From assembly GCA_027068765.1 (NCBI GenBank), contig JAMOMC010000172.1, positions 5,123 to 69,122 of the forward strand: a stretch of 64,000 bases of DNA, written 5' to 3'. This DNA comes from Campylobacterales bacterium. GTDB lineage: Bacteria; Campylobacterota; Campylobacteria; Campylobacterales; QNZT01. This document shows positions 4,996 to 62,145 of the stretch, one piece after another. Under the pieces are notes generated by a model that saw only the letters and a list, made by a program, of their open reading frames with translations, was not told the DNA's origin and did not search any database. Position numbers and translations under genes: made by a program. The number at the start of each line of letters is the position of its first letter. Position 1 is the stretch's first letter.

Positions 4996-6056
4996 TAGTA
5001 GACTCTTAAAACTGATGTATCAAAACTATAGATAAAACCTATCTTTGCATAACCATACTTTTTTGTATATCTATTTTTTGTATATCTGTTATAAAGATAA
5101 GGTATGACACCGTTAAATTGGTGAAGCATGGCTTTTCCACCGATAAAAACAGTAATCTTATCATTTAGTTTTCTGCTAATTGAGCCTTTAAAGATATGAT
5201 TGTCATCTGTGAGTTTTACATTATCTTCTCTTCCAAATATATTTAGATACTCATATCCACCTTCAAAGAGAAAATCTTGATAATTGTAAACATAGTTAAA
5301 CCCAAAAAAAATGGACTCTTCATCTCTTTTTAAATCTGTTCCTTCAATCTCTACATTAAGTATATCTTGTATGATATTATGTAGTACTATATCACTCTCT
5401 ATAGAAGTTGTTTTTACTCCTGCATAGAGATTTAAAATAGAGTTTTGAAATTCCAAATTTCCAACAGCTCTTATAAAAAAAGATAAATCACTCATATTTG
5501 CAATTTTCATAAAAGGGACTATACCGCCTCTATTTACTATATATAGTGTACTTCCTTTATAAGAGACTCCACCATCTTTAAATACCATAGTTGTGCCTGG
5601 TCTAATCTTTTGTATCATGGAGTTTAAAAATGAGTCATTTTTTAAACTAATATCATCACTGCTATTATGTGTGAAACCAAGGTCAACTGAGAGAGGAAGT
5701 AGAAGATTTTCTATATACGGATTTAAATTTATTTTGCCAAATATTTCATGTTTTTTGTTTTTAAGTTCTGTATCTCCATAATTTATACTTAGATATTCAA
5801 AATTATAGTAGATACTATTGTATGAGTCAATACCGTAACCTAAAGAGATATCTAATCCACTCGCATCTCCAATAGAGCCAACATTTACGCTTCCTAATTC
5901 ACTCTCTTTTATATTAAAAACATCAATTGTATCGTTTATCTTATTGTAATTTAACTTTGTTTTTAACTCTCTTTCATTTAGTAGATTTAAGCCTATTTCA
6001 TTAGCACTAAGAAAACTTATAGTTAGTAATAGAAAAGTAGTTGCTATTTTTTTCAT
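4995..6056 (-). CDS. Outer-membrane beta-barrel protein, paralog 1 (polysaccharide-export associated)
   Basis: Signal peptide 'MKKIATTFLLLTISFLSA', alternating beta-strand pattern, and C-terminal 'GYAKIGFIYSF' with terminal aromatic residues. Clearly homologous to the 6077-7000 product. Confidence 0.6.
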   Translation of the reverse strand: MKKIATTFLLLTISFLSANEIGLNLLNERELKTKLNYNKINDTIDVFNIKESELGSVNVGSIGDASGLDISLGYGIDSYNSIYYNFEYLSINYGDTELKNKKHEIFGKINLNPYIENLLLPLSVDLGFTHNSSDDISLKNDSFLNSMIQKIRPGTTMVFKDGGVSYKGSTLYIVNRGGIVPFMKIANMSDLSFFIRAVGNLEFQNSILNLYAGVKTTSIESDIVLHNIIQDILNVEIEGTDLKRDEESIFFGFNYVYNYQDFLFEGGYEYLNIFGREDNVKLTDDNHIFKGSISRKLNDKITVFIGGKAMLHQFNGVIPYLYNRYTKNRYTKKYGYAKIGFIYSFDTSVLRVY

Positions 6057-46050: not shown

Positions 46051-47211
46051 TTAATTTAATTTTTTTCCAAATAACACAACTGGAAGATATTTTACACTCC
46101 AGCTTATAAACAGTACAAGCCAGAGCAAGACTGAGAGGTCAAAAAGTATATTTAAACCACTAAATGAGTAGATAGCTCTTGTTATAACAACAATAGGAGT
46201 TAGATAAAAAAGGGCTTTTGTAGTTTTATCAATAACCATTTGATTTCCAGAGTGTCCAAGAGTTACACGAGTTCCAAAACCTATCATAAGTGTTGTTAAA
46301 AATCCAAGCATAACAAGATGCAAACCAACATAGATAAAATCTTTCTCAAATATAAGTTCTATAAAAGATGCAAAGCTAGAGATAAAAAGAGAGATAGGGA
46401 GCCAAAAGAGTCCAAGATGCAGTATCCATAAGATGCTTTGTGAGTTTTTATATGGTAATTTCCAGCTATAAATCTCTCTTGCTAAGTATAAACTAAGAAG
46501 AAGTAAAAAGATAAAACCTATTTTCAAATTAAACACTTCAAAAATTATAAAGGCAGAAAAAAGAGAAAATGTAATAGGAAGTAATTTTTTATTTTTTTCA
46601 ACCATAACATGAGAAAAAAATGGAATCATTCGCTGTCCAACACTTAAAGCAGTGATAGTTAAGAACAGATAGATAGCAATGAGTTTTGCTAAAGATAAGA
46701 TAGTCTCAGAGTTACTTAAAAATCCTACAAAAAATAAAAAACAAGAGACAACTCCACTAGCAAAACCTATCATAATCCATTTTTGATCATAAAGATCTGG
46801 CATTGGAGAGATCTTATAAATTTGGTAAAAAACTACCATCGTATAGATAAGAGATGCAAAAACAAAAAATACTCCAAAATAAATTAAAACATTAGAGATA
46901 AACGAGCCAATTAAAAAGAGTAAAATTCCCAAAAATAAAAGGGCAAAATTTGTAGTATAAATACTCTTTTCAAGTGCTATAGTTTGGCTAAATCTTGGAA
47001 AGGTTGTAAGTAAAAATCCTAAAAAAAACGGGGTAAAAACAGCAAATATCAAAGAAAAGGAGTGAAAAAAATTTGCAGAGGCAGTAAGTGTTACAATCCC
47101 TTTATAACTAAGAGTAAAAACTAGCATAAAAATGGTAGCATTTACAATACCAAAAGCAAAAAATGCTTGATGTGGCTGTGAAAAAATAAGTTCTAATTTA
47201 CCTCTATTCAT
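46051..47211 (-). CDS. NnrS-family polytopic membrane protein
   Basis: ~12 TM helices, ~386 aa, and an N-terminal 'QPHQAFFAFGI' region resembling the NnrS N-terminus. Family call by recall. Confidence 0.6.
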   Translation of the reverse strand: MNRGKLELIFSQPHQAFFAFGIVNATIFMLVFTLSYKGIVTLTASANFFHSFSLIFAVFTPFFLGFLLTTFPRFSQTIALEKSIYTTNFALLFLGILLFLIGSFISNVLIYFGVFFVFASLIYTMVVFYQIYKISPMPDLYDQKWIMIGFASGVVSCFLFFVGFLSNSETILSLAKLIAIYLFLTITALSVGQRMIPFFSHVMVEKNKKLLPITFSLFSAFIIFEVFNLKIGFIFLLLLSLYLAREIYSWKLPYKNSQSILWILHLGLFWLPISLFISSFASFIELIFEKDFIYVGLHLVMLGFLTTLMIGFGTRVTLGHSGNQMVIDKTTKALFYLTPIVVITRAIYSFSGLNILFDLSVLLWLVLFISWSVKYLPVVLFGKKLN

Positions 47212-47615
47212 GCTAAATACTTTGTAGGAACTTTTATGATATTGTGATTTGTGGGACTCATCTCTTCTCTATCTTTTTCTAAATCTTCTTTATAAACTTG
47301 TAGTTGATCACTCAAAAGAAGAAGCCAAGCAACAAGAGAGTCACTAGCTTTTCCATCTACTTTTCTACACTCTTCTAAAACCTCTTCACCAAGGGTTACG
47401 ATTTTATTTATTTCAACTATTTTTAAATATGCAGAAGAAGATTTTATATTGTGAAAGATGCGAAAAATTTCATCTATATTGTTTTTATAAAGCTCTTTTT
47501 TTTCTAACCCAATTATTAATGGTTCTAATGCTTCAATCATAAATGTATAGTGAGAAAAAAACTCCTCAATAATCTCTAAATCATACTCTATCTCTAAATC
47601 TGTAAAAACACCCAT
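47208..47615 (-). CDS. Single-domain Hpt (histidine phosphotransfer)-like protein
   Basis: 'IFRIFHNIKSSSAYLKI' fits the Hpt 'aHxLKGsa..lG' site. ATG 47615 is preceded by AGAGG. The longer TTG-initiated ORF would overlap the mfd start. 4-bp overlap with the NnrS-like gene. Confidence 0.55.
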   Translation of the reverse strand: MGVFTDLEIEYDLEIIEEFFSHYTFMIEALEPLIIGLEKKELYKNNIDEIFRIFHNIKSSSAYLKIVEINKIVTLGEEVLEECRKVDGKASDSLVAWLLLLSDQLQVYKEDLEKDREEMSPTNHNIIKVPTKYLA

Positions 47616-47675
47616 ATAACCTCTTTTAAATTGACTACTTGCTATTATATTAGCAAAATACAAATAAGGTAAAGT

Positions 47676-50645
47676 TTGCAAGCAACCATATTCGAATACT
47701 TAAAATCCAATCCAAACATAGAAGTTTTAATCATAAAAGATGACAAAGAGGCACAAATAGCTTCTCATTGTGCCTCTTTTTTAGGTTATAAGAGTTTTGT
47801 TTTGCCAGATTTTCGTGCATCTTATGGAGATGATCTTCGCTCATATAAAGAGGAGTTGTTTGAGATAAATATCTCTCTAAGTGCCTATTTTGAGACAAAA
47901 AAGTCTAAAAAGATTCTTATATCTCCTTTTAGGACTTTAGCACATTCACTTCCCAAAAAGTCTCTTTTTCAAAATTTCAATATTGAGTTTGGGCAGAGTT
48001 TAAATCTTTTAGAGTTTAAAGACAAGCTTCTTTACTGGGGGTATAGTTTTGTTGATATTGTGGAGGAAAAAGGAGAGGTTTCATTTCGAGGTGATATTAT
48101 CGATATATTTCCTATCTCATTTTCAAATCCTATTCGTATCTCACTTTTTGATGATGAGATTGAGAGTATTAGAGAGTTTTCTTATTTGAGTCAAAAAAGT
48201 AATAAAGAGGAATTAGAAACTATTAAAATCTCTCCTGCACTCTTTGGGCTTTGTAAAGAGGAGTATGAGCTTCTAGAATCAAGAGTGAGTGAGCTTAAAA
48301 GTGATAGTTTTGTGCAAGATATAAACTCTCTTGGGTTTTGGTGTTTGGAGGAGTTAGCGGAGAATTATCTAAAAAAGATGACTCTTATCTCTGTTTCAAA
48401 TATAACAAAAGAGGTAGAAGAGTATTTTTCTTTTTCACAAGATGCTAAGAAAAAAGAGCAATTTTTAGAGATACCTATTATAAATGAGCCTAAAATATAT
48501 AAAGATATAGAGGTTGCTTCATTAGATGCACTAATAGAGTATCATAAAGATAAAAAGATAACCATAATTGCTAAAAATGAAGGCTTGGCAAAACAGTCAG
48601 TTATCAAAAGTGATGCTAAAATATCTTATCAATATAGTGAGTTAATAATAAACCTTTTAAGTAGTGAAGAGCTTATCATATCTCTAAACAAACCTGAGAA
48701 AAAAAATCGAAAAAATCGAAGTAAAATTGTACTTGATGATCTTAAAGTTGGAGATTATGTTGTTCATGAAAATTACGGTATCGGTCTTTTTAAAGGTCTT
48801 ACAAATACCAAGGTTTTAGGTGTTGTGAGGGATTTTGTTGAGATTTCTTACCAAGGAGATGATAGGCTTTTAATCCCTGTTGAAAATTTAACTCTCATAG
48901 ATAGATATATATCTGATGGTGGTGGTATGGCTATAGTTGATAAGCTTGGAAAAAGTAGCTTTATCAAGATGAAAGCCAAAGCAAAAATAAAACTTTTTGA
49001 GATTGCTAAAGAGATTATCGAAATAGCAGCAAATAGAGAGCTTATTAATGGAGCTAAAATTAGCTCAAATGATGATGAGTTAGAAGTATTTCAAGCAGAT
49101 GCAGGGTTTGTTTATACTCAGTGTCAAGAGAAGAGTATATCTGAGATATTTGAAGATTTGGCAAGTGCTAAGGTTATGGATAGACTCCTTAGTGGAGATG
49201 TTGGGTTTGGAAAAACTGAGGTTGCTATGAATGCAATTTTTGCGAGTGTAAAGAGTGGTTTTCAAGCTGCATTTTTAGCTCCAACTACTCTTCTTTGTTC
49301 TCAACACTTAAAAAGTTTAAAAGAGAGGTTTTCAAAGTATGGTATTTCAGTTGTAAAGCTTGATCGTTTCACAAGCACAAAAGAGAAAAATGAGATTTTA
49401 AAAGGTCTTAAAAGTGGAAGTATCGATGTTTGTGTAGGAACTCACTCTCTTTTTGGAGTAGAGTTTAATAATCTTGCATTTTTAGTTTTAGATGAAGAGC
49501 ATAAGTTTGGAGTAAAACAAAAAGAGAAGTTAAAAGCCCTAAAACAAAACCTCCACATACTCTCAATGAGCGCCACCCCAATACCAAGAAGTTTAAACAT
49601 GGCTCTCTCATCTATAAAACAGTATTCGCAACTTCAAACCCCACCAGATAAAAGAGAAGATGTGAGGACTTTTGTAAAAGAGTATAATGAGAAGCTTTTA
49701 AAAGAGATATCTCTTCGTGAGATTAGAAGAGGAGGGCAGATTTTTTATGTACACAATAGAATTTCAAGCATAGAGCAAAAGAGAAAAGAGCTCCAAGAGA
49801 TATTGCCTGAAGCAAAAATTCTTGTGCTTCACTCTAAGATTTCAGCAGCTGTTACAGAAAAAGAGATAATGGCATTTGAGAAAAAAGAGTATGATATTTT
49901 AATCTCTACAACTATCATAGAATCAGGCATCCACATACCAAATGTAAATACAATTATAGTTGAAAATGCTGATAGATTTGGAATGGCAGATCTTCATCAG
50001 CTTCGTGGACGAGTAGGTAGAGGGAGCAGGGTTGGGTATTGCTACTTTTTAGTAAAAAATAAAGATGAGATTTCAGATAGTTCAAAAAAAAGATTAATCG
50101 CACTAGAGTCAAACTCATTTTTAGGAAGTGGGGCGGTATTAGCTTATCATGATTTAGAGATTAGAGGTGGTGGAAATTTGATAGGAGAAGCACAAAGTGG
50201 TCATATTAAAAATATCGGATATTCACTCTATCTTAAAATGTTAGAAGATGCACTAAGTACACTCTTAAATGAGCAAAAAGTAGAGAAAAAAGAGGTAGAG
50301 ATAAAGCTTGCTGTTAGTGCATATCTAAGTAGTGATTCAGTTGGAGAGGATCGCATAAGATTGGAACTGTATCGTCGCCTTAGCAAATGTGAGAGTGTAA
50401 ATGAAGTTTATGAGATAGAGGAGGAGATGATTGACCGTTTTGGTAAGTTAGATCTTATGACAAAAAGTTTTTTAGAGATAATAGTGATAAAAATTTTAGC
50501 TTCACAAAAGGGGATAAAACTCATATCTAGTTATCAGCAAAACATTACAATTGTTAAAGATGATGAGACAAAAGAGTATCTGAAATCTCCAAGCAAAGAT
50601 GATGATGATATTATCAATACTACTTTGGGGTTTTTGAGGAGGTAA
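47676..50645 (+). CDS. mfd: Transcription-repair coupling factor
   Basis: CarD/RID-like 'GDYVVHENYGIG', Walker A 'GDVGFGKTEVAM', 'VLDEEHKFG', 'LHQLRGRVGR' and a TRCF C-terminal domain. Confidence 0.9.
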   Translation: MQATIFEYLKSNPNIEVLIIKDDKEAQIASHCASFLGYKSFVLPDFRASYGDDLRSYKEELFEINISLSAYFETKKSKKILISPFRTLAHSLPKKSLFQNFNIEFGQSLNLLEFKDKLLYWGYSFVDIVEEKGEVSFRGDIIDIFPISFSNPIRISLFDDEIESIREFSYLSQKSNKEELETIKISPALFGLCKEEYELLESRVSELKSDSFVQDINSLGFWCLEELAENYLKKMTLISVSNITKEVEEYFSFSQDAKKKEQFLEIPIINEPKIYKDIEVASLDALIEYHKDKKITIIAKNEGLAKQSVIKSDAKISYQYSELIINLLSSEELIISLNKPEKKNRKNRSKIVLDDLKVGDYVVHENYGIGLFKGLTNTKVLGVVRDFVEISYQGDDRLLIPVENLTLIDRYISDGGGMAIVDKLGKSSFIKMKAKAKIKLFEIAKEIIEIAANRELINGAKISSNDDELEVFQADAGFVYTQCQEKSISEIFEDLASAKVMDRLLSGDVGFGKTEVAMNAIFASVKSGFQAAFLAPTTLLCSQHLKSLKERFSKYGISVVKLDRFTSTKEKNEILKGLKSGSIDVCVGTHSLFGVEFNNLAFLVLDEEHKFGVKQKEKLKALKQNLHILSMSATPIPRSLNMALSSIKQYSQLQTPPDKREDVRTFVKEYNEKLLKEISLREIRRGGQIFYVHNRISSIEQKRKELQEILPEAKILVLHSKISAAVTEKEIMAFEKKEYDILISTTIIESGIHIPNVNTIIVENADRFGMADLHQLRGRVGRGSRVGYCYFLVKNKDEISDSSKKRLIALESNSFLGSGAVLAYHDLEIRGGGNLIGEAQSGHIKNIGYSLYLKMLEDALSTLLNEQKVEKKEVEIKLAVSAYLSSDSVGEDRIRLELYRRLSKCESVNEVYEIEEEMIDRFGKLDLMTKSFLEIIVIKILASQKGIKLISSYQQNITIVKDDETKEYLKSPSKDDDDIINTTLGFLRR

Positions 50646-50895
50646 TATATGTGTCTGATAAGAAGTCACTTAATTTGATGTTGGTGTAAACCAATAGAGT
50701 ATTTTGTTACTTTCTTTCTTCTTATAAGTAATCATTCACAAATTTTATTTAAAATTATAACATTAAAAAATTTGATTTTTTTGATTTTCTTATATTGCTA
50801 TCGAATTTAGCTTATAAACAATATAAACTTGGAAAAACTATTTAACTTTGCAAATAATTGTGATAAAATATTTCATAGATATGCAAGGGAGAAAT

Positions 50896-52551
50896 ATGAC
50901 AAATACAGAAGTTCTACGGTTTATTATCAGTGGATTAGAAAATAGCCCTGATATTATTTGGAAAGGGGATAAGGAGCTTTTTGAGTTGATTTTTGATCCG
51001 ATTCCATATGGGAATGATATTGAAAATAGACAAAAAGAGGCAAAACAATTTATCTTCGATATATTTCAAAATGTTGGCAAGTTTGATAAAGCAAAATTTA
51101 ATAAACTTGTAAAAAATATAATCTCTGGAGGAAGTGAGGAGAGTTGTAGAAAAAAAATAGTAGCCTTTCTTCAAGAAGAGATAACACGACTAGAAATCAT
51201 AACAGATGTAGATATAGAAAAACTTGTTGAAGCACTTCCTTGTAAAGGTGATTTAGATAAAGGGCAAAAAGAGTATATCTATGATATTTTTCAATATGTT
51301 GAAAAGTTTAATAAAACAAAATTTGATCAACTTTCAAAATCTATAACTTGCGGAAAAGATGAAAAGATAGATAAAGAAGTAGTAATAACCTTTTTGCGAG
51401 AAGAGGTAACACGACTAAAAATTATAACAGATGTAGATATAGAAAAACTTGTTGAGTTTATTCCTTGTAAAGATAGTAAAGAAAAAAATTATAAGACATC
51501 ATTTTCAGGTTGGAAAAAAGAGGGAACTATTTCTAGTATAGGTTGTAAAAGAATTAAAAAAGCTCTACAGAAAAATTTTTATTTTGAAAGTGACTTATGG
51601 TCTAAAGGAGATACTTTTATAAAACAAAGATTACAAGAAGGTATAAATAAATTTATAATTGGTCCTCTTCCATTAGATCCTATAACCCCTTCTTTTACAC
51701 AAGAAGAGTTGGATGACTTATTAAATATTAGAGGTATGAAGTTACAAGAAATTAAACAATATCTAGAAGAACACCCTATTTTATCACAAAATTTTGTAGA
51801 AAAATTGATTTATATTTTATATGATAAAGAATACTATGATCTTTTAGTAGATGAAGTATTTAATAAATTTTATAAAGATGATATAGGGATTAAAAAAATA
51901 AAAGCACATGTTTGGGGTAGTGATAAAATAGGTAAATATTTAGAAGCATATTATTTACTTTCTACTATACCTTCAGACGATGATGATGAAATAGTAAATA
52001 TGAAAACTGCGGCAACCTCAAATATGAGACGACATCAGTTAAATGATGCAAAAACAGACAACAATCAAAAAAAAGAGATTATTGAAACGCTAATCTCTGA
52101 TTACAAAGAAACTTTTGAGTCTAAAGATACTTACAACTACTATCCTGGTATAAATTTAGCCTATATGTCAGTGATATCTATAGCTCTTTTTGGCAACGAG
52201 ATAAAACTAGATGATAGTATTTCTACTATTTATAATAAATCAAAAAAATCTATCGATATAGACAAAAAAAATCTTGATACTTCAAAACAATACTATGCAA
52301 ACATAACTACTATCGAGTTTATGCTACTTAACAACATTGAAAGTTTTACTGTTGAATTAGAACAATTTTTGGACTCTAAAGAGCAAACAATAATTATTAA
52401 AGGGCTACTTCAAACAAGGCGACAGATGCAGTTTTTTATCGATACTCTTGCAAGCTCTGGGATTAGTAAAAATCCTATCATCTTAAATATGCAAAAATCA
52501 ATAAAGATAATTGATGACTTTATAGATGGTTTAAAAGAATTTGAAATGTAA
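50896..52551 (+). CDS. Unknown protein A: duplicated novel N-terminal module + DUF4071/TRAF-binding-TPR-like C-terminal domain (tentative)
   Basis: ATG 50896 is preceded by AGGGAG and aligns with the paralog start 'MTN(T/S)EV'. C-terminal motifs 'YNYYPGINLAYM' and 'KQYYANITTIEFMLL'. I recognise no enzymatic motif. Confidence 0.7.
   Translation: MTNTEVLRFIISGLENSPDIIWKGDKELFELIFDPIPYGNDIENRQKEAKQFIFDIFQNVGKFDKAKFNKLVKNIISGGSEESCRKKIVAFLQEEITRLEIITDVDIEKLVEALPCKGDLDKGQKEYIYDIFQYVEKFNKTKFDQLSKSITCGKDEKIDKEVVITFLREEVTRLKIITDVDIEKLVEFIPCKDSKEKNYKTSFSGWKKEGTISSIGCKRIKKALQKNFYFESDLWSKGDTFIKQRLQEGINKFIIGPLPLDPITPSFTQEELDDLLNIRGMKLQEIKQYLEEHPILSQNFVEKLIYILYDKEYYDLLVDEVFNKFYKDDIGIKKIKAHVWGSDKIGKYLEAYYLLSTIPSDDDDEIVNMKTAATSNMRRHQLNDAKTDNNQKKEIIETLISDYKETFESKDTYNYYPGINLAYMSVISIALFGNEIKLDDSISTIYNKSKKSIDIDKKNLDTSKQYYANITTIEFMLLNNIESFTVELEQFLDSKEQTIIIKGLLQTRRQMQFFIDTLASSGISKNPIILNMQKSIKIIDDFIDGLKEFEM
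51031..51471 (+). repeat. Intragenic tandem duplication (~70-aa module x2) inside gene A
   Basis: Unit 1 (51031-51246) 'QKEAKQFIFDIFQNVGKFDKAKFNKL...TRLEIITDVDIEKLVEALPCK'. Unit 2 (51265-51471) 'QKEYIYDIFQYVEKFNKTKFDQL...TRLKIITDVDIEKLVEFIPCK'. The stretch 'ataacagatgtagatatagaaaaacttgttga' is identical in both. Confidence 0.85.
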
Positions 52552-52615
52552 ATCCAAATAATCCAATATAAAAGTGTTATGATAATATCACACAGATAAG
52601 AAATGAGGATAAAAT

Positions 52616-53265
52616 ATGACAAATTCAGAAGTTGTGCAGTTTATTATCAGTAAGTTAGAAAATAGCTCTATCACTTGGAAAGGTGACAAAGAGCTTTTTG
52701 AATTGATTTTTGCTCCAATTCCATATGGGAATGAAATTGAGAAGAGACAAAAAGAGATAAAACGATCTATTTTTGATATCTTTCAAGATATTGATAAGTT
52801 TGATAAAATAAAATTTAATAAACTTGTAAGAGATATAAGCTGTGGAGATCAAAAAAGACATAAAAAACAGATTATAACCTTTTTAGAAGAAGAGATAATA
52901 AGGCTCAAAATCACAACAGATGCAGATATAAAAAAACTTGTTTCCGTTATTCCTTGCAAAAATTCTAAAGAGAAAAACTATAGAACTCAATTTGCACATT
53001 GGAAAAAAAAAGGAGCTACTGTTACTATACATGATAGGAGTATCAAAAATGCTTTGCAGAAAAATTTTTATTTTGAAAGTGACTTATGGTCTATGGAAGA
53101 TGCAGCTATAAAACAAATATTGCAAAAGGGTATAGACACTAGAATTCTATTACTGAATTAGAACTGTTTTTGAAATTTAAGGAGAGGATAATAATTTGCA
53201 TAGAGCTAACAAAACGACAGATGAAGTTTTTTATCGATACTCTTGCAAACTCTGGAATAGGTTGA
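52616..53265 (+). pseudogene. Tandem, internally deleted and frameshifted copy (A') of gene A
   Basis: ORF 52616-53161 parallels the A N-terminus with a single repeat unit, including an identical run 'cagaaaaatttttattttgaaagtgacttatggtcta'. 53158-53265, in a different frame, reads 'LELFLKFKERIIICIELTKRQMKFFIDTLANSGIG*', matching A's C-terminal 'ELEQFLDSKEQTIIIKGLLQTRRQMQFFIDTLASSGIS'. Confidence 0.7.
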
Positions 53266-53303
53266 AATATAAAAATGTTAATATCAATACGCAAGGGTAG
53301 TAA

Positions 53304-54371
53304 ATGACAAATAATTTCTTTGAAAAACATTCTATTTTAGGGTTACAACCCGAAATCATAAAAAGTGATAAAAGCTATAGTATAGTTCTCTATGGTAACT
53401 CCCCTCTGGCTATAAAGATATTTTATCAACTTGCTATCTTATCAAATCTTCCAAATGAAAACATACTAAATTTATACCTTGTTGATTTGAAAGCTAAGAA
53501 TTTTTATAAAAAATTAAAAAAGCTTTTTAGTGGTATCAAAAAAATAACTCATCTTAATATCATAACTATAGAGTTAGATAGTAAAAATCCCAAATTTTAT
53601 ACCAACAAAATATGGCAAAAAGAGAACTTAACAAATATCATTATTGCAACACAAAATGAAAAGAAAAATTTAAAAATCAAAACAGAGCTCAAAAACTACA
53701 TATCTAGCAAAAAAACTAAAATTTTATTACCTATAGCAAGTCGAACCAATATCAACTCTAAACAAATAGCAAAATTGATTAACTACCTATATCAAGAGAC
53801 AAAATACAACCCAAATCTACTTTTTACACAAAAAGATAAAGATAAAGCAAAAACAATATGGTCAAATAAAATATTATTAAGTGATAAAAAATCAACTAAG
53901 ATGCAAAGTATTCATATAGATACAAAACTATTAACTCTTGGTTTAAAAAAACAAAAAAGCACAAAAACCCCCGAAGAACTTTTAAAAATAAATAAAGAGA
54001 TATTTGATAAAAAATTAGGGTTTAGAGAGATAGATGATCAAAAATTACAAGAGTACTCTCTGAAATTTCAAGATACTAAAAATAACTTTACAGCAATTTA
54101 CTTTCCAAAAGAGTTTAAAAGTCTATTTGAAAAGCTGATAAGAAGTGAACATAACAGATGGAACACTTATCATTATCTAAATGGTTGGAAATATAATAAA
54201 AATAAAAACAAACAACTAAAAGAACACAACTGCTTGATGCCTTTGGAAAAATTTGATAAAGAGTATCTTAAAACTACAGTGATATTTGATATATACTCTA
54301 TAGTTTATATACCAAATTTATTGGCTAGTGTTGGGGTGGAATTAGTTGATATAATGGAAAAAACACTCTAA
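53304..54371 (+). CDS. Unknown protein B: N-terminal Rossmann-like region + C-terminal RyR-like domain (tentative)
   Basis: 'SEHNRWNTYHYLNGWKYNKNKNKQLKEHNCLMPLEKFDKEYLKTTVIFDIYSIVYIPNLLASVG' fits the RyR-domain pattern (H..W......GW.Y......K.H..L.P...L......D...V..IP..L...G). RBS 'AAGGGTAG' lies upstream. Confidence 0.65.
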   Translation: MTNNFFEKHSILGLQPEIIKSDKSYSIVLYGNSPLAIKIFYQLAILSNLPNENILNLYLVDLKAKNFYKKLKKLFSGIKKITHLNIITIELDSKNPKFYTNKIWQKENLTNIIIATQNEKKNLKIKTELKNYISSKKTKILLPIASRTNINSKQIAKLINYLYQETKYNPNLLFTQKDKDKAKTIWSNKILLSDKKSTKMQSIHIDTKLLTLGLKKQKSTKTPEELLKINKEIFDKKLGFREIDDQKLQEYSLKFQDTKNNFTAIYFPKEFKSLFEKLIRSEHNRWNTYHYLNGWKYNKNKNKQLKEHNCLMPLEKFDKEYLKTTVIFDIYSIVYIPNLLASVGVELVDIMEKTL

Positions 54372-54386
54372 AAAAGGTAATAATTT

Positions 54387-54944
54387 ATGGCATACTTTCC
54401 CGCATTTATAAAACTTGACAATTTAAAAATTTTGATTATCGGTGGCGGTAATATAGCTAGTGAAAAACTTGGGCATATGTTGGATTTTACTAAGGATATA
54501 ACAGTAATATCTCCAAAACTATCAGCTACTTCAAGAGAGTTAATAAAAAAGAATTCGCTTTTTTTTATAAATAAAATTTATGAGAAAGATGATATTGATG
54601 GTTTTGCTATAGTTATCGTGGCAGTTGATGATGTGAGTGTTCAAAAAAGTGTTTATGAAGAGGCAAAAAGTAAAAAGATACTTTGCAATAGTGTTGATAG
54701 TGTGGATTATTGTGATTTTATATTTCCTTCATATATAAAAGATGGAGACTTGACAATTGCTATCTCAACCTCAGGTTCATCTCCAGCTTTGGCTAAACAT
54801 CTGCGTAAATTTTTGCAAAAGGTTATGCCAAAGTCTATAGATGATTTTTTAAAACAGATGAAAAGATATAGAGAGAGTATGCCAAAAGGAAAAGAGAGGA
54901 TGGAATTTTTGGATAAAAAGGCTAAAGATTTTTTTAAAACTTAA
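54387..54944 (+). CDS. Precorrin-2 dehydrogenase / sirohydrochlorin ferrochelatase (SirC/CysG N-terminal-like)
   Basis: 'FPAFIKLDN.KILIIGGGNIASEK', 'DFIFPS' and 'LTIAISTSGSSPALAK'. Confidence 0.8.
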   Translation: MAYFPAFIKLDNLKILIIGGGNIASEKLGHMLDFTKDITVISPKLSATSRELIKKNSLFFINKIYEKDDIDGFAIVIVAVDDVSVQKSVYEEAKSKKILCNSVDSVDYCDFIFPSYIKDGDLTIAISTSGSSPALAKHLRKFLQKVMPKSIDDFLKQMKRYRESMPKGKERMEFLDKKAKDFFKT

Positions 54945-55024
54945 TTTAAAGGCAACTCCAATAATCAATTAATTATTTAATTATGCTAATATATAATATT
55001 AATTTAATTATTTAAGGGTATAAG

Positions 55025-56368
55025 TTGAAAAATAGAAAAACTATAATCACTTACGGAACATATGATATGCTTCATATTGGTCATCTAAATATACTAAAAC
55101 GAGCAAAAGCTTTAGGAGATTACTTGATAGTTGGAGTTACGGATGAAAATTATGACCGTTCTCGTGGAAAGTTAAATGTTTCGCAAAGTACAAAAAAGAG
55201 AGTAAATGCTATAAAAGAGTTGGATTTTGTTGATGAAGTTATCGTTGAGACTCATAAAAAGCAAAAAGCTATTGATATGATAAAGTACAATGTAGATATA
55301 TTTGCAATTGGGGATGATTGGGTTGGAGCATTTGACTATCTTAATAAATATACACATGTTGAGTATCTTCCTCGCACTGAGGGCATCTCTAGCACAAAGC
55401 TTAGAAATGAGACTTTTAAGCCTATAAAATTAGGAATTTCAGGACTTGGAAAAGAGACAGGATCTTTTATAAATGAAGCAGAGTTTGTCTCAAATATATC
55501 AATTACTAGAATTTATGATGAAGATTTATCTTCAATAAAAGAGTTTACAAAAACTTCAAATATAAAATATGGTCACGATAACTATGATGAGTTTTTAGAT
55601 ACCTCAATCACTGCTGTTTATATAAACTCATCTGTAAAAGAGCACTATACTCAGATAAAAATGGCTCTAGAAGCTGATAAACATGTACTTTGTGAAAATC
55701 CTTTGGCACTTGAAAAAGATGAGTTAAAAGAACTTTTAGCTTTAGCTAAAATAAAGAAAAAAATTCTTCTTTCAGCTTTAAGAACAGCATTTTTACCTGC
55801 ATTTAATCAACTTTTAAAAAAGATAAACAAAGGTGTAATTGGTGATATAAAAGTAGTTCGTGCAAATCGTTCTACACTTTATAAACAAAGAGATTATCCT
55901 GATGAGTTTATGAAACAAGGTGCTACAAATCTACTTTCTAGTTATCCATCTTTGTTGACTCATAAAGTTTTAGGAAAGAGTAAAGATATAAAATTTTTTG
56001 ATCAATTAGAAGAGGATTATGATATAAGTAACACTATAATTACAACTCATAAAAATGGCACTATTGGTATATCTACAATTGCAACAGGAGTAAAATTGGA
56101 AGAGAGTGCTATGATTGCAGGAACAAAAGGTTATATCTATATTCCTTCTCCATGGTGGCTTATGAAAAGTTTCTCACTTGGTTTTGAAGATGAGAGTAAA
56201 AGTGAGAAGTATGAGTATGAGTTTGAGGGATGTGGGCTTCGTTATATGATTGCAGAGTTTAGCTCTTTGATACAAAGAGGAAAGATAAAATCTAAAAAAT
56301 TAAGTGGAGCTGATATGATGAAGATAAATAGAGTAGTATTAAAATATAATGAAAAAGGAGAGAAGTAG
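55025..56368 (+). CDS. Fusion: TagD-like cytidylyltransferase + Gfo/Idh/MocA oxidoreductase
   Basis: N-terminal 'TYGTYDMLHIGHLNIL' (HxGH) and 'RTEGISSTKLR'. The C-terminal half has 'IKLGISGLGK' and 'HVLCENPLAL' (EKP-like motif). TTG start. Confidence 0.75.
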   Translation: MKNRKTIITYGTYDMLHIGHLNILKRAKALGDYLIVGVTDENYDRSRGKLNVSQSTKKRVNAIKELDFVDEVIVETHKKQKAIDMIKYNVDIFAIGDDWVGAFDYLNKYTHVEYLPRTEGISSTKLRNETFKPIKLGISGLGKETGSFINEAEFVSNISITRIYDEDLSSIKEFTKTSNIKYGHDNYDEFLDTSITAVYINSSVKEHYTQIKMALEADKHVLCENPLALEKDELKELLALAKIKKKILLSALRTAFLPAFNQLLKKINKGVIGDIKVVRANRSTLYKQRDYPDEFMKQGATNLLSSYPSLLTHKVLGKSKDIKFFDQLEEDYDISNTIITTHKNGTIGISTIATGVKLEESAMIAGTKGYIYIPSPWWLMKSFSLGFEDESKSEKYEYEFEGCGLRYMIAEFSSLIQRGKIKSKKLSGADMMKINRVVLKYNEKGEK

Positions 56369-57442
56369 ATGATATATGAGGATTATTATATATTTACTCC
56401 AGGACCTGTTAAGATGTCTAAAGAGATTTTAGAGATAGGGGCGAAGCAGACTCCGTATTTTAGAAATAGTGAGTTTTCTGATGTTACTTTTTATTGTGAA
56501 AATTATCTTTTAGAGATGCTGAATGCTCCAAAAAATAGTAGAGTTATATTTTTGACCGCATCTGGGACTGCTGGTATGGAGTCTGTGGTTATGAATTTAC
56601 TAGATGTAGATGATAATGCACTTGTTGTTAATGGCGGAGGTTTTGGTGCTAGATTTGTGGATATTTGTAATTTACACGATATTAATCATTTTAATTTAAA
56701 AGTTAAAGATACAAATCTTAGTGATATTCAAAAGATTGCTCCACAAGAAAAATTTAATTCACTTATAGTTAATGCTCATGAGACGAGTGTTGGACATATT
56801 TATGATTTAGAGGCTATTGGTAAATATTGTAAAAAAAATAATCTTTTATATATTGTAGATGCAATTAGTATGTTTGTAACAGACTCTTTAGATATGCAAA
56901 AAGATAGTATAGATGCAGTAATTGTTAGTAGTCAAAAAGCGTTGGCTCTTCCTCCTGGGCTTACTATGGTTGTGTTATCTCCTAAAGCATTAGAAAAAGT
57001 AAAAGATGTAAAAAGTTTATATTTTAATTTTAAAGATTATCTTAGAGATGGACAAAGAGGTCAAACACCTTATACTCCAGCAGTTACCATAATGCTTCAG
57101 CTTGAAGCTAGGTTAAAACAGATTCAAAAAGATGGAGGAGTTGAAAAAAGTATCAAAAAAGCTAAAAATTTAGCTGAATATTTTCGTCAAAAAATAAAGC
57201 CTTTACCACTTGTAGCCTTTTCCAAGTTTATGCCAAATGCGATGACGACCCTTGCACCAACAGATGGTAAAAGTGCTTTTAAAATAGTAGAAGATTTGGA
57301 GAAAAATTATAAGGTTATGGTCTGTCCAAATGGAGGAGAGTTAAAAGATAAAATTTTTAGAATCTCACATATGGGTGATATGGATGAGGCTTATATAGAT
57401 ATTTTAATAAATGCACTTTTTGACTATTATGAAAACAATTGA
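56369..57442 (+). CDS. Class V (AGXT/PhnW-like) PLP aminotransferase
   Basis: 'IFTPGPVKMS', 'DAISMF' and the PLP-lysine context 'VSSQKALALPPGL'. The start abuts the previous stop. Confidence 0.8.
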   Translation: MIYEDYYIFTPGPVKMSKEILEIGAKQTPYFRNSEFSDVTFYCENYLLEMLNAPKNSRVIFLTASGTAGMESVVMNLLDVDDNALVVNGGGFGARFVDICNLHDINHFNLKVKDTNLSDIQKIAPQEKFNSLIVNAHETSVGHIYDLEAIGKYCKKNNLLYIVDAISMFVTDSLDMQKDSIDAVIVSSQKALALPPGLTMVVLSPKALEKVKDVKSLYFNFKDYLRDGQRGQTPYTPAVTIMLQLEARLKQIQKDGGVEKSIKKAKNLAEYFRQKIKPLPLVAFSKFMPNAMTTLAPTDGKSAFKIVEDLEKNYKVMVCPNGGELKDKIFRISHMGDMDEAYIDILINALFDYYENN

Positions 57443-58187
57443 TGATAAAACTATAAAAAAAGCTCAACTTATCATGCTTGATATGCTGATAGAATTTGAC
57501 AAAATTTGTCAAAAGCATGAGCTTAAATACTGGTTAGATAGTGGTACACTTTTAGGGGCCATCAGACATAATGGTTTTATACCTTGGGATGATGATGTAG
57601 ATATATCTATGCCTGTGAGTGATTATAAAAAGTTTTGTGAAGTTGCAAGTGGTGAGTTAAAAAAAAGTATGTTTTTACAACACACAAAAACAGATAGTAC
57701 ATTTCCTTTTGACTATATGAAGATAAGAGATACTAGAGCTACGATTGTAGAGTTTCATGAAGAGGGTAGGGATATAAAGTACAATCAAGGTCTTTTTTTA
57801 GATATTTTCCCAATGTTAGTTATAAAAGATAGTAAGTTTCATAATTTTATTTATAGATACTCTTTTATGGTTATCAGATTTTTTTCTGCAAAAAAGTTTG
57901 AAAATAGACACATAAGAGGAGTGTTTGTAAATTTACTTCATAAGATGCATCTTGGTTTTTTAAAAAAAGATACAAAGATTATCTATGGCGGTGAGATGCC
58001 AGATGTAGCTGGAAGTTTCTCTTATGATGAGATTTTTCCACTGAAAAGAATAGAGTTTGAAGGTTTAGAGTTTTTAGCTCCAAATAGATGTGAAGATTAT
58101 CTTTTAGAGCTTTATGGTGAGGATTATATGCAATTACCCCCTTTAGAAAAAAGGAGTGTGCATGCAGTAGAGATCAAGATAACCTAA
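57429..58187 (+). CDS. LicD-family phosphotransferase
   Basis: 'YWLDSGTLLGAIRHNGFIPWDDDVDISM' is the LicD signature. An alternative ATG at 57411 is possible. Confidence 0.8.
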   Translation: MKTIDDKTIKKAQLIMLDMLIEFDKICQKHELKYWLDSGTLLGAIRHNGFIPWDDDVDISMPVSDYKKFCEVASGELKKSMFLQHTKTDSTFPFDYMKIRDTRATIVEFHEEGRDIKYNQGLFLDIFPMLVIKDSKFHNFIYRYSFMVIRFFSAKKFENRHIRGVFVNLLHKMHLGFLKKDTKIIYGGEMPDVAGSFSYDEIFPLKRIEFEGLEFLAPNRCEDYLLELYGEDYMQLPPLEKRSVHAVEIKIT

Positions 58188-58775: not shown

Positions 58776-59792
58776 TTAATCTCCTATAATTTTAAATTCT
58801 ACTCTTCTGTTTATCTGTTTATTTTCTAAAGAGTTGTTTTTTACTAGTGGTTGACTTTCTCCATAACCTATAGCTTTTAGTCTATAACCTTTTATCCCTT
58901 TTGAAATAAGGTATTTTCTTATGGCGTCAGCTCTTTTTTGACTCAGTTTTTTATTGTTTTGTTCAGTTCCATCTGAATCAGTATGACCGCCAATTTCAAC
59001 TTTGACCTCTTTATGTTCATTTAATATATCATAAACTTTGTCGATGCTATTTTTGCCTTTAGGGGTTAGAGCATCTTTTGCATATACAAATTCAACTTTT
59101 GATAATTTAAATAGATTATCAAGCTTCTCTTGTATCTCTTTTTTGCTTACTTTTTTGATAATAGGCTCTTTTTGAACAATCTCTTTTGGCTCAGAAGGTT
59201 TTGGAGGAATTTTTTCAATATTTTTTATCTCCTGTTTAACTTCAGATTTTTTTACTTTAATTTTTTCTACAATTAGTTGATTATCAATCTTTATGTTTCC
59301 CGCACCTAGTAGTTTGTTATGAATGTCTTGTTTGACTTGTTGATCATCAACCCTACCACTCATTGTCATTTCTCCTGCTTTGTACTCTAAAAAACCATTT
59401 TTAAATTTTGAAAATTCACTATTTAGAGTTGGTAAAAGTTTTAAAATTTTTATATTTTGAGCATTCTTATCTATGATAATCATACCCTCTTTTACATCTT
59501 CAGAGATTTTTTTGTATTCAGACTTAAGTGTTTCTAAATCCTCTTTTGAGTTAAAAATTCCAGAAATTTTGATACTATCTTTATCTTTTAAGACTTTGAT
59601 ATTTATATCTTTTCCCTTTTGTGATTGCTTCAGCACCGTTTTAGCACCTTCGCTTTGAGTAGTTGTTGGTGTTATTGCAGGTTTAGTAACTGCTTTTGTA
59701 TCATTTAACTCTTGTAGTTTATTCCAAACACAAAAGATGATAAAAAATAGCAAAAGCCAAACCAAAAGCCATAACCATTGACGTCGCGACAT
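58776..59792 (-). CDS. OmpA/MotB-family peptidoglycan-binding protein with N-terminal TM anchor
   Basis: TM 'WLWLLVWLLLFFIIF'. C-terminal 'GHTDSDGTEQNNKKLSQKRADAIRKYL...NRRVEF'. Confidence 0.8.
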   Translation of the reverse strand: MSRRQWLWLLVWLLLFFIIFCVWNKLQELNDTKAVTKPAITPTTTQSEGAKTVLKQSQKGKDINIKVLKDKDSIKISGIFNSKEDLETLKSEYKKISEDVKEGMIIIDKNAQNIKILKLLPTLNSEFSKFKNGFLEYKAGEMTMSGRVDDQQVKQDIHNKLLGAGNIKIDNQLIVEKIKVKKSEVKQEIKNIEKIPPKPSEPKEIVQKEPIIKKVSKKEIQEKLDNLFKLSKVEFVYAKDALTPKGKNSIDKVYDILNEHKEVKVEIGGHTDSDGTEQNNKKLSQKRADAIRKYLISKGIKGYRLKAIGYGESQPLVKNNSLENKQINRRVEFKIIGD

Positions 59793-59844
59793 TTAAATTC
59801 CTTTTTTTCTTTTATTGTAGCAGTTAAAATCTAAAAAACAAAAA

Positions 59845-62145
59845 TTATTTTACTTTTTTTAGGAAAAAAGTGAAAAAATCTGATTGAAACTCACTGTTTC
59901 CTATCTTTTTGTACTGTATAGATGCACCTTCAAAGTTTCTCTCTTGTTGATATAAAAGTCCAAGAGCATATCTACTCTCAAAATTAGATGGATCAGTTAG
60001 TTTTGAAAGCTCCAAAAGTGCAACAGCATTTGCATAATGTTTCGCACCAATGGCAGAAACTGATGCTAAAAACAGAGTATGAGTATCTTCTTGCCCATAA
60101 TTATCAATTAGTTCATTATATATTTGATATGATTTTTCAAAATCTTTATTATATATATTTGCAAATGCTAAAGATTGTAGGTATGGTACACTTTTTACAT
60201 CTTTATATTTTTCTAGCTCCCTTTTTGCTTTATGAGAAATTCCTGCGATACTTAGCATCCTTATATATAATTCACGAGGCAATGCACCCCCATAAAGAAG
60301 TGGATTTAAATCTAAATCATCTTGATTTAAAACTCTTTGAATTGCTCTAGCATAAGCTTTTATATCATTTTTATTGTGTGAGGAGTCAAGATATAGTATA
60401 TTTGAGACGATATCGTTTTTCAATCTACTCTTTAGCCAGTAGGCACTTTTGGAGTAGATGCTTATATCGTTTTGAATGTTAGAGATAATTAGATTTATAG
60501 CATGTGCAAAGATTTGTGAGTTGGTTTCTATATACTCTAGATTTAATACAGATGTATTTAGGGCTAAGTTTATGAGAGCTAAGGCCTCTTTATTATCACT
60601 TTTCTCTTTTAATTTTTCAAGCTCTTTTGCTGGTATCTCTCTAGCCGTCAATTTTGCACAAAAAGCTTTAAATGTTAATGCTTTGTAGTTGTTTAAATCA
60701 AGAGAATAACTTTTTGAGAAGTATTTATAAGCATTTTGAAAATCAAAGATTTGAGCATATGATAGAGCTAAATTATAGTATAAAGCTGAGTGAGAGGGAT
60801 ATAGTTTTGTTGTATTTTTTAGTATCTTATTTGCTTCATATATTTTGTTTTCATTTATTTTTTTTAATGCTTTTGTAATTTCAATATTTATATTTGAGAT
60901 GGTTTTTGAATCTTTTAGATATAAAAGAGCTGGTGTAATATCTCTTATTTCCACTTTTTTTGCACCTTTTTGAATATAGTTTATAGTCTCACTCGCATCA
61001 AAGAGTTGGTAAGGAGCATAATAAAAAAGTAGAGAGTATCTATATTTATTATCTAAAAAAAGTCTTCTTTTAAATTCATTTTGAGCTAAAATTGGATCAA
61101 AAAGAGAGTTTTTAAGCTCTACTTTTATAGGGTATGTCTCTTCAGCTTTTTGTTTAAAGGAATCGTAACTAGCTTTTAAAAGCTCTCCTGAATCTTCTAA
61201 AAGCCCTAATTTGTTTTTTACTAATGCAAGAGCTACATTAGATTTTAAAGGCTCTATCTTACTTGATACTGCATTTTGCAAAGAGTCTTGTGCAAGTTTA
61301 TACTCTGAAGCTCTTGCTTGTAAAAGTCCAATAGCCAAATAATCTTTTGCATAATTTATTTTTTTTAGATGATTTATAGCTTGTGTATCATTTTTGCTTG
61401 TTGCTAAAATTTTACTAGCTATAAAATTTTGTTCATCTTTATAAAAACCTGATGTAGGATTTAAGATAGCTATTAAACTCTCAGTTGGTTCAAGTTTATA
61501 ATAGTTTATAAGAGCTATATAGTATGAATAAAGAGGGGAGCTTTGCACAAAAGGTAGATACTTTTGACTAAGAGCTAAATAGTGAAAAAATGCATCTTTA
61601 TCTTCTAAATATAAAGAGCAAATTGCTGAGTTTAAAGCACTTGGAGTTTTTAGTTTATCGCTCATCATTGAAGAGTCAAAAGATTCTATTGCCTCTTTAT
61701 ATTTTTTTAGTTTTAATTTGGCTACACCGATATTGTAAAAAGAGATGGCTTTATTGTAGTGAGAGAGGTGATTATAGATTGCTAAAGCCTCTTTTATCTC
61801 TCCTTGTTTATATAGTCTGTCTGCTTTTTGGATTAATTTTTGGGCTTTGCTTAACTCATTTTTAGATAACTCTTTTTCTTTTATAGTTTTTATAATTTTA
61901 GTCTCATTTACTTCATGGTTTTGTTTTAACGAAGTTTTTTTCTTAATATAAAAAATTGTAAAAACTACTCCCATTATGAGTATTAGAATTAAAAATGCAA
62001 TTATGAGGTATTTTATAAGTGTATCAGTTGTTATACTCTTTTTTTTTGTCTCATCCTCTTCTATCTCAACTTTTGAACTCTTTTTTTGTTTCGATGTTTC
62101 CTCTAAATCATCATCATCGATGGTTTTAAACTCTTCATCAGCCAT
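59845..62145 (-). CDS. TM-anchored TPR-repeat protein (positional analog of Campylobacter PflB, tentative)
   Basis: Acidic N-terminus, one TM helix ('LIIAFLILILIMGVVFTIFYI'), then many TPR-like A/Y/L-patterned repeats. It sits immediately downstream of serS, as I recall for C. jejuni Cj0390. Confidence 0.6.
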   Translation of the reverse strand: MADEEFKTIDDDDLEETSKQKKSSKVEIEEDETKKKSITTDTLIKYLIIAFLILILIMGVVFTIFYIKKKTSLKQNHEVNETKIIKTIKEKELSKNELSKAQKLIQKADRLYKQGEIKEALAIYNHLSHYNKAISFYNIGVAKLKLKKYKEAIESFDSSMMSDKLKTPSALNSAICSLYLEDKDAFFHYLALSQKYLPFVQSSPLYSYYIALINYYKLEPTESLIAILNPTSGFYKDEQNFIASKILATSKNDTQAINHLKKINYAKDYLAIGLLQARASEYKLAQDSLQNAVSSKIEPLKSNVALALVKNKLGLLEDSGELLKASYDSFKQKAEETYPIKVELKNSLFDPILAQNEFKRRLFLDNKYRYSLLFYYAPYQLFDASETINYIQKGAKKVEIRDITPALLYLKDSKTISNINIEITKALKKINENKIYEANKILKNTTKLYPSHSALYYNLALSYAQIFDFQNAYKYFSKSYSLDLNNYKALTFKAFCAKLTAREIPAKELEKLKEKSDNKEALALINLALNTSVLNLEYIETNSQIFAHAINLIISNIQNDISIYSKSAYWLKSRLKNDIVSNILYLDSSHNKNDIKAYARAIQRVLNQDDLDLNPLLYGGALPRELYIRMLSIAGISHKAKRELEKYKDVKSVPYLQSLAFANIYNKDFEKSYQIYNELIDNYGQEDTHTLFLASVSAIGAKHYANAVALLELSKLTDPSNFESRYALGLLYQQERNFEGASIQYKKIGNSEFQSDFFTFFLKKVK

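Follow-up and report, generated by a model that had tools for sequence, protein, structure and literature searches.

The 64,000-nucleotide stretch of DNA analyzed here (the window; positions 5,123 to 69,122, forward strand, of contig JAMOMC010000172.1, GenBank assembly GCA_027068765.1, from a Campylobacterales bacterium) carries two neighboring genes, here called A and B, downstream of mfd. A encodes a helical-repeat protein whose C-terminal half resembles the Pfam TPR-S family, and B encodes a predicted Rossmann protein that ends in a ryanodine receptor (RyR)-type domain. We propose, with moderate confidence, that A and B are a conserved two-gene module of the TIR/ADP-ribose (ADPR) nucleotide-signaling branch of bacterial conflict (anti-phage) systems, a role in defense or conflict that we infer from the context of the pair and its relatives. 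The evidence consists of the domains of the two proteins, the conservation of a nucleotide pocket in B, the pairing of the genes in four lineages, and an exchange of partner genes among the relatives of A. The module and its parts are as follows.

50896-52551, plus strand: gene A, an open reading frame (ORF) of 551 aa, predicted to be all-alpha; helical N-terminal region at aa 1-260, TPR-S-type domain at the C terminus (aa ~330-551)
51034-51258 and 51259-51483, plus strand: tandem duplication in A, two units of 225 nt (75 aa) with 74% nucleotide and 53% amino acid identity
51883-52548, plus strand: TPR-S-type domain that forms the C terminus of A (aa 330-551); motifs TxxxSNxRR, YYPGINxAY, YYAxIxxxEF, and RTxRQ
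52552-52615, plus strand: first copy of the A-B spacer, 64 bp (ATCCAAATAATCCAATATAAAA...), here preceding A' and not B
52616-53281, plus strand: A', decayed tandem copy of A (BLASTP, repeat families D1, D3, D4, D6, and D7, and tblastn)
53304-54371, plus strand: gene B, 355 aa, predicted Rossmann and tandem RyR-repeat domains (Pfam RyR, AlphaFold 2 [AF2], and Foldseek)
53361-53738, plus strand: Rossmann domain of B, RCK/NAD-binding-like, aa ~20-145 (AF2 and Foldseek)
53751-54353, plus strand: tandem RyR-repeat domain of B, R12-like, aa ~150-350 (AF2 and Foldseek)
54087-54263, plus strand: match to Pfam RyR (PF02026) in B, aa 262-320, 34.5 bits, E = 2.5e-8

An earlier reading of the same DNA from its letters alone (the sequence-only reading) had noted an RyR-like segment at the end of B, and this was borne out. 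The PF02026 match exceeds the Pfam gathering cutoff of 27.4 bits, and a profile of the B family matched RyR repeats in the PDB (E = 8.3e-15) as well as a Bacteroides RyR-domain structure (3nrt, E = 1.6e-6). The AF2 model of B, with a predicted local distance difference test score (pLDDT) of 93.8 and a predicted template modeling score of 0.92, was matched by Foldseek to Repeat12 of RyR3 with a probability of 0.99-1.00 and a template modeling (TM) score of 0.41-0.48 over ~205-225 columns, its two repeats forming one pseudosymmetric globular domain. The Repeat12 structures that were matched had been crystallized with ATP, ADP, and AMP-PCP. The N-terminal domain of the model matched NAD-binding domains with a probability of 0.97-1.0; it has a conserved GxSxxA loop, and Asp61, with which strand 2 ends, is shared by 27 of 45 family members.

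RyR-domain proteins were reported as binders or destroyers of cyclic ADP-ribose (cADPR)-type signals only in 2026, and for phage proteins only. In that preprint of May 2026, phage RyR-domain proteins (PF02026) bind 2'/3'cADPR, and the founding member, RyDEP, cleaves it by means of a His75/Asp117 dyad, with Trp78 stacked against the adenine and the phosphates held by His100; other phage RyR homologs are nanomolar sponges, six of eight binding without cleaving (PMC13232231). The PF02026 match of B contains E282-H283-N-R-W286 and K306-x-H308, with D329 just downstream (54288-54290). In a hidden Markov model alignment of the B family to RyR repeats, H283, W286, H308, and D329 fall on H75, W78, H100, and D117 of RyDEP, with spacings from H283 of +3, +25, and +46 and a 4-residue insertion. 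Within the B family these positions are kept almost without exception (W286 and H308 in 45 of 45 sequences, H283 and D329 in 44 of 45). They are found in repeat 2 only, and repeat 1 has no H/W motif. On this sequence and model evidence, B is a Rossmann plus R12 protein in which an ADPR-type pocket is intact. It resembles the RyDEP family in its R12-type fold and in having the H..W / H / D residues at matching spacing. It differs in being host encoded, in carrying both repeats, in tandem, on a single chain whereas RyDEP is a homodimer, in its N-terminal Rossmann domain, and in its linkage to TPR-S or TIR-STAND proteins rather than to phage early genes. In a fold search of BFVD with B, phage RyR proteins appeared only weakly.

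Of the 54 homologs of B, the closest are ~350 aa long, and most of the others are ~600-620 aa (for example, P0023, P0025, P0030, and P0036) and have two N-terminal transmembrane helices and a TrkA_N/RCK domain, followed by the Rossmann and RyR R12 domains. A scan for TrkA_N (PF02254) gave no match in B, and in the long homologs the match falls in the extra N-terminal region. Since R12 domains bind cADPR isomers, the long homologs, with this channel-like layout, could be nucleotide-gated channels. The same layout also speaks for an alternative in which the pair is a nonimmune, nucleotide-sensing regulator of ion homeostasis, B being a soluble RCK-type subunit like KtrA/TrkA with an RyR domain, A being a TPR adaptor, and the island-like context being incidental. 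A weak match of the B family profile to KtrA/YuaA RCK domains and the housekeeping genes around the pair in the window are compatible with this idea. However, the short forms of B make up a clade of their own, which recurs in TIR/STAND, TPR-S, and toxin-antitoxin contexts. The distribution is extremely patchy, the pair has undergone duplication and decay, and the evolution of A is fast. We regard regulation of ion homeostasis as improbable.

A has few relatives: a search of 5.8e9 clustered proteins found 13 homologs, and one of 1.84e9 proteins found 99 representatives. No match of A reached the threshold in Pfam, NCBIfam, or PADLOC, and PHROGs gave none at all. TPR-S ("Tetratricopeptide Repeats-Sensor," PF20308, gathering cutoff of 27.6 bits) was matched by 10 of 28 distant members of the A family, with a best E value of 3.8e-10, and nine that were scanned again singly scored 14-24 bits. 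A profile built from the C-terminal domain of the A family alone (A6) retrieved 23 proteins, ~370 aa in length, with a precomputed PF20308 assignment, at E values from 5e-35 to 3e-20, and for this reason the C-terminal half of A is considered a divergent TPR-S domain. The motifs YYPGIN, YYAxI, and RTxRQ are shared with the Pfam TPR-S proteins, in keeping with this profile-level homology. A differs from the classical members in falling below the Pfam cutoff and in having ~120 extra N-terminal residues and the 75-aa duplication. The family shares a conserved core that extends from an NYK..F..WK motif (aa ~198 of A) to the C terminus, and the first ~120 aa of A are specific to its subfamily, with a related N-terminal motif in some distant members.

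The AF2 model of A consists entirely of helices (pLDDT of 80), with the highest values in the C-terminal half (85-95). In Foldseek searches against the PDB it gave the matches of a TPR-like alpha-solenoid, including the TPR region of ASK1 and the TPR proteins Rap, LGN, and KLC. The best specific match, which covers the C-terminal half of A, was the central regulatory region of ASK1 (MAP3K5; 5ulm_A, probability of 1.00 and TM score of 0.46 over 301 columns; 8qgy_B, probability of 0.99), at weak E values (0.14). A sequence search of the PDB with the A profile gave no significant match. The sequence-only reading had called this part of A DUF4071-like, which holds for the fold, through ASK1, and fails for the family, which is TPR-S instead. 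PF13281 (MAP3K_TRAF_bd, formerly DUF4071) did not match A at E ≤ 1 and matched one of 28 relatives below its cutoff of 24.1 bits (P0131, E = 0.00099, 18.7 bits). A differs from ASK1 in having neither this match nor a kinase domain, a PH domain, or a TRAF context.

The presence of Rap proteins among the fold matches (3ulq, 8rte, and 6t3h; probability of 0.5-0.66) and the arrangement of a helical N-terminal region before a TPR-like domain could also fit an RRNPP-like quorum-sensing receptor with helix-turn-helix (HTH) and TPR domains that binds a secreted peptide and DNA, a possibility that had been raised from the sequence. It did not survive closer analysis. No HTH family matched A at E ≤ 1, the matches to homeodomain profiles from the PDB were nonsignificant (E of 0.4-1.7) and lay in a different segment from the one proposed, and the Rap matches are weak beside the far stronger similarity to ASK1 and TPR-S. 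There is no small propeptide ORF beside A (no small same-strand ORF before the next gene), and the partners of the family are SLOG-like or RyR proteins and not peptides. We find a role for A as an RRNPP-like receptor scarcely credible.

An A-like gene followed by a B-like gene was found in four distinct lineages (the window and loci L005, L006, and L098) at 66-84% nucleotide identity; L097 is 100% identical to L005 at the nucleotide level, and L007 is nearly the same as L006. Every relative of B that is at least 72% identical and has upstream DNA on its contig is preceded by an A-like gene. The pair, its spacer, and its promoter motif are kept across the four lineages, so that the description of A and B as a two-gene module, first made from the window alone, has stood up. 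Amino acid identity to the relatives is 47-64% for A and 72-81% for B, A being the faster evolving of the two.

Distant A-like genes without B have a different partner. At seven loci (L001, L002, L003/L004, L091, L093, L094, and L095), a gene for a SLOG-like protein of ~185 aa lies upstream of the A-like gene and overlaps it by ~10 nt (22 nt in L094). The SLOG-like proteins share the motifs GxSGHR, LADGADR, and GGTxDIA. In L100, a SLOG-like gene (E = 8.8e-52 against the SLOG-like profile) is directly upstream of a classical TPR-S protein of 390 aa, and the pairing of SLOG-like and TPR-S proteins thus extends at least to this classical member. The SLOG-like gene is absent from the window (tblastn, best E > 1) and from the DNA upstream of the A-like genes in L005 and L006; the window lineage has lost this partner gene and its clade has the downstream Rossmann and RyR gene instead. 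The sequence-only reading had placed an undescribed domain where TIR-type effector domains are often fused; relatives do have something at that position, namely the separate SLOG-like gene, which in the window lineage is gone. A search for a SLOG-like domain fused to the long members of the A family found none, their extensions being diverse helical regions.

TPR-S proteins therefore alternate between a SLOG-like and an RyR partner. SLOG is the established sensor of cADPR isomers in ThsA (PMC9503650), and because of this the alternation is one between two types of ADPR-binding domain, which points to two interchangeable ADPR-binding modules beside TPR-S.

Short relatives of B outside the A-B clade are found beside TIR-bearing proteins. 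In L096, such a gene is directly upstream of a gene for a TIR-like-STAND-TPR protein and overlaps it by 4 nt, and in L099, another is directly upstream of a TIR_2-STAND gene. L008 (10001-15101; also L009) has two tandem B paralogs (349 and 378 aa, 53% identical) followed by a TIR_2-NMT1_3 protein of 848 aa; trypsin-CARDB and TIR genes precede these paralogs, and a STAND-TPR gene of 1411 aa stands at the edge of the locus. On the Arcobacter plasmid CP146529.1, a short relative of B lies directly upstream of a DUF4062 protein, with type I restriction-modification, integrase, and transposase genes around it. Within the plasmid collection searched, B had one match and neither A nor classical TPR-S had any. 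TIR genes flank related modules in L003/L004, L096, L099, L008, and L104, and the neighborhoods of the relatives are generally rich in toxin-antitoxin, TIR, and restriction-modification genes. Together, these observations show a bacterial Rossmann and RyR lineage that keeps the pocket residues of the phage RyR proteins and has been repeatedly wired to TPR-S or TIR-STAND proteins.

Several of these loci contain further genes. In L003 (1071-5654; also L004), a TIR protein of 206 aa with a C-terminal transmembrane helix is encoded 72 nt upstream of the SLOG-like and A-like pair, and a 587-aa gene without a Pfam match follows the pair. This TIR is 48% identical to the TIR encoded divergently from the B-like gene in L096, a similarity that links the SLOG-like/A-like and B-like types of module. 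The assignment of the small TIRs of L003 and L096 to published Thoeris TIR clusters was weak (~21% identity to a TIR associated with "4TM SLOG") and was not used. In L100 (5431-13173; also L101), the TPR-S gene is followed by genes for an FtsK/HerA-type ATPase, two small proteins, a repeat protein of 698 aa whose C-terminal part has hydrophobic segments, a vWA protein, and a PP2C phosphatase, a run that may be a larger conflict-type operon. PG_binding_1 proteins encoded upstream of three SLOG/A-like loci and a 280-aa protein in L006 were considered as partners and dropped, as they look like secreted or outer membrane proteins.

The pocket residues and the TIR neighbors are open to a different interpretation, in which B is a sink for the signal. 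In that case, B would be a cADPR hydrolase or sponge, host or island encoded, that ends or buffers TIR signaling, and A would regulate or target B; it might serve as an off-switch against autoimmunity or give a mobile element an anti-Thoeris function. The only characterized standalone RyR-domain proteins degrade or sequester 2'/3'cADPR, and B keeps the equivalents of both members of the catalytic dyad, H283 and D329. Furthermore, B-like genes adjoin those for TIR-bearing proteins but have no effector fused to them, and the window has neither a TIR nor an effector in cis. However, scans of viral contigs found no relatives of A or B, and the matches of B in PHROGs were marginal and came through the RyR motif. 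The 4-nt overlap between the B-like and TIR-STAND genes in L096 suggests a cooperating subunit and not an antagonist, and a sink would leave the alternation of SLOG-like proteins and B as partners of TPR-S unexplained. On balance, we consider it rather unlikely that B is a sink.

In the signaling module that we favor, B would be the nucleotide-handling component. It most likely binds an ADPR-derived signal, because the R12 pocket residues are kept and are joined to an NAD-binding/RCK-like Rossmann domain, and it may also hydrolyze this signal. A would be a TPR-S-type helical-repeat sensor or adaptor that works with B as its relatives would work with the SLOG-like protein, and its fast-evolving, duplicated N-terminal region would be the likely surface for specificity or output. 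Both the faster evolution of A compared to B and the duplication in its N-terminal region are consistent with a sensor or adaptor. R12 in B and TPR-S in A are the candidate sensing domains of the pair, and the signal would come from a TIR enzyme encoded elsewhere in the genome. In this mechanism, we infer the identity of the ligand, the interaction of A with B, the source of the signal, and the output.

All of the components are of known kinds (TPR-S proteins, RyR/R12 domains, and conflict systems linked to TIR). The pairing of A with B, the exchange of SLOG and RyR partners, and the occurrence of host R12 proteins beside TIR-STAND are not cataloged in PADLOC and were not found in the literature searched. 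Neither PMC13232231 nor bioRxiv 10.64898/2025.12.03.692087 mentions host RyR proteins or PF20308, and a literature search on TPR-S and DUF4071 found nothing relevant. One of the closest known systems, on the side of A, is ThsI, the effector of type VIII Thoeris described in December 2025, which consists of a CMP hydrolase and a TPR, is activated by canonical cADPR, and has its TPR proposed as the cADPR-sensing part (bioRxiv 10.64898/2025.12.03.692087). ThsI couples its TPR to a Rossmannoid domain that processes nucleotides; the SLOG-like and A-like pair looks like this layout split over two genes, and in L003/L004 the pair has a TIR gene directly upstream. In contrast, the window has no TIR gene or CMP hydrolase domain, and it is ThsI for which a defense phenotype has been shown. 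The same preprint also describes a type X Thoeris system with an ion-channel effector. On the side of B, ThsA of type I Thoeris (SIR2 and SLOG) offers a possible analogy, with an NAD-binding-type Rossmannoid N terminus followed by a C-terminal domain of a type that binds cADPR isomers. The Rossmann domain of B is RCK/dehydrogenase-like and not SIR2, with no evident catalytic motif, and the sensor domain is R12 rather than SLOG.

A broader interpretation, which we offer tentatively and with some doubt, is that host R12 is a new class of receptor for cADPR-type signals made by TIR enzymes, that A and B are a new Thoeris-like module in which R12 has replaced SLOG as the partner of TPR-S, and that the ~610-aa relatives of B are nucleotide-gated channel effectors and a prokaryotic antecedent of the cADPR-modulated ryanodine receptors. 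If true, TIR-based immunity would gain both a new receptor class and a new type of module, with a bearing on why animal ryanodine receptors carry the RyR domain.

Several observations weigh against a TIR-linked conflict module. Five TIR queries run by tblastn found no TIR-like sequence in the window (best E = 0.99), scans with Pfam, PADLOC, NCBIfam, and PHROGs recognized no toxic or enzymatic effector domain in A or B, and the neighbors of the pair in the window are the housekeeping genes already mentioned. The one suggestive match of A itself, to TPR-S, is below the cutoff (15 bits, E = 0.038, aa 389-424, ending at YYPGIN), and the matches of the ~185-aa SLOG-like protein to YpsA (E = 0.006) and YAcAr (E = 0.03) are likewise subthreshold. 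Since six of the eight phage RyR homologs do not cleave the ligand, conservation of the pocket residues cannot separate a binder from an enzyme. For most A-B loci the contig is short and shows little of the surroundings. Finally, PADLOC has no model for the A-like, B-like, SLOG-like, or classical TPR-S relatives, none of which was matched. In PADLOC-DB 2.0, A' and B had no match and A had a chance-level match to a methyltransferase (E = 0.01), in agreement with the original impression that the locus fits no named defense system.

The duplications around A bear on whether the locus is functional. That A has an internally duplicated N-terminal region was correctly recognized from the sequence; the duplication is missing from all 12 homologs of A and from A'. 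The two repeat units have a synonymous divergence (dS) of ~0.29 and a ratio of nonsynonymous to synonymous divergence (dN/dS) of ~1.1, compared to a dS of ~0.55 and a dN/dS of 0.40 for A versus A', a difference indicating that selection on the repeated N-terminal segment is relaxed or diversifying. With a dS of ~0.55, the duplication that gave rise to A' is not recent, contrary to what had been supposed; the split of A and A' is estimated to be old and the internal repeat younger.

A' had been taken for a decayed tandem copy of A ending at 53265. The identification holds, and the remnant reaches 53281. Its 181-aa ORF (52616-53161) corresponds to the N-terminal region with one repeat unit, and BLASTP aligned A' to A over two segments with 64% and 54% amino acid identity (E = 3e-49). 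An internal deletion of ~700 nt has removed the equivalent of 51646-52343 of A, and an out-of-frame C-terminal remnant follows at 53145-53281, where aa 487-526 of A matched 53155-53268 by tblastn. No other relative of either is as close as A and A' are to each other, and A' is clearly a pseudogene, a dead duplicate. The spacer motif ATCCAAATAATCCAATATAAAA is also found between the stop codon of the A-like gene and the B-like gene in L005 and L006, and its 3' part recurs directly before B in the window. These positions imply that A and the A-B spacer were duplicated together, and hence that the copy originally next to B was A'.

The pseudogene, the dN/dS of ~1.1 in the internal repeat, and the missing SLOG-like partner of the relatives might be taken to mean that the whole locus is a decaying remnant without a current function. 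We judge this very unlikely. A is an intact ORF of 551 aa that keeps every family-invariant residue, B is intact and 72-81% identical to its orthologs with its pocket residues kept, and the pair is conserved with its spacer and promoter motif in the four lineages.

The locus is lineage specific. In 80 relatives, A, B, the sirC-like gene downstream of B, and the genes after it were all absent within 10 kb of mfd, so that the pair is no part of the core content, as had been anticipated. Because the genes 3' of B are also absent after mfd in these relatives, the variable region reaches well beyond A and B. The suggestion that the pair was inserted between two core genes could not be upheld, since the sirC-like gene and the DNA beyond it are nonsyntenic and gene order is scrambled relative to the nearest relative. 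The G+C content of the window is ~30%, and its Mfd protein shares 87% identity with the Mfd of Campylobacterales bacterium BB8 and ~74% with Sulfurospirillum Mfd. The end of mfd at 50645, the AT-rich gap of ~250 bp, and the start of the sirC-like gene at 54387 were all confirmed, and the flanking features are as follows.

47676-50645, plus strand: mfd, transcription-repair coupling factor (Pfam TRCF, CarD_TRCF_RID, UvrB_inter, DEAD, and Helicase_C); upstream boundary, outside the module
50646-50895, plus strand: AT-rich noncoding leader of 250 bp, likely containing the promoter and the ribosome-binding site (AAGGGAG) of A
54387-54944, plus strand: sirC/cysG-N-like precorrin-2 dehydrogenase gene; downstream boundary, outside the module

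A, A', B, and the sirC-like gene are all on the plus strand, no terminator-like sites were found between them, and Rfam and tRNA scans of the locus detected no family and no tRNA. Upstream of A, an extended -10-like site with a TG extension (TTAACT-16-TGATAAAAT, 50842-50869) lies ~25 nt before the start codon, and in L005 and L006 the TGATAAAAT motif likewise precedes the A-like gene, ~25 nt 5' of its start; promoter-like sites in the locus are not more frequent than expected by chance. A TTG start at 50848, given by the ORF finder, is unlikely for A, as the homologs and the ribosome-binding site favor the ATG at 50896. A, A', and B share the start ATGACAAAT (Met-Thr-Asn; 50879-50905, 52609-52630, and 53287-53313), with a GCAAGGG-type ribosome-binding site before A and before B and GAGGA before A'. 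This common start joins two unrelated genes, A and B, and the start ATGACAAAC is also found in the B-like genes of L006 and L098.

The sirC-like gene matched NAD_binding_7 (E = 2.6e-27), Sirohm_synth_M, and TIGR01470 (cysG_Nterm, E = 1e-34). It is the first of a group of genes 3' of B (54387-58187) that continues with a cytidylyltransferase-GFO/MocA fusion, a class V aminotransferase, and LicD and looks like a surface-glycan decoration cluster. Farther downstream, a multi-TPR protein of 766 aa (58776-62145, minus strand), with no similarity to A detectable by tblastn, is encoded beside an OmpA-family gene, upstream of the gene for seryl-tRNA synthetase. On the other side of the pair, a 157-aa gene (47208-47681, minus strand) is divergent from mfd and overlaps its predicted TTG start at 47676 by 6 nt. 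It is the sole neighbor of mfd that is kept beside it in the nearest relative (72% identity, L010).

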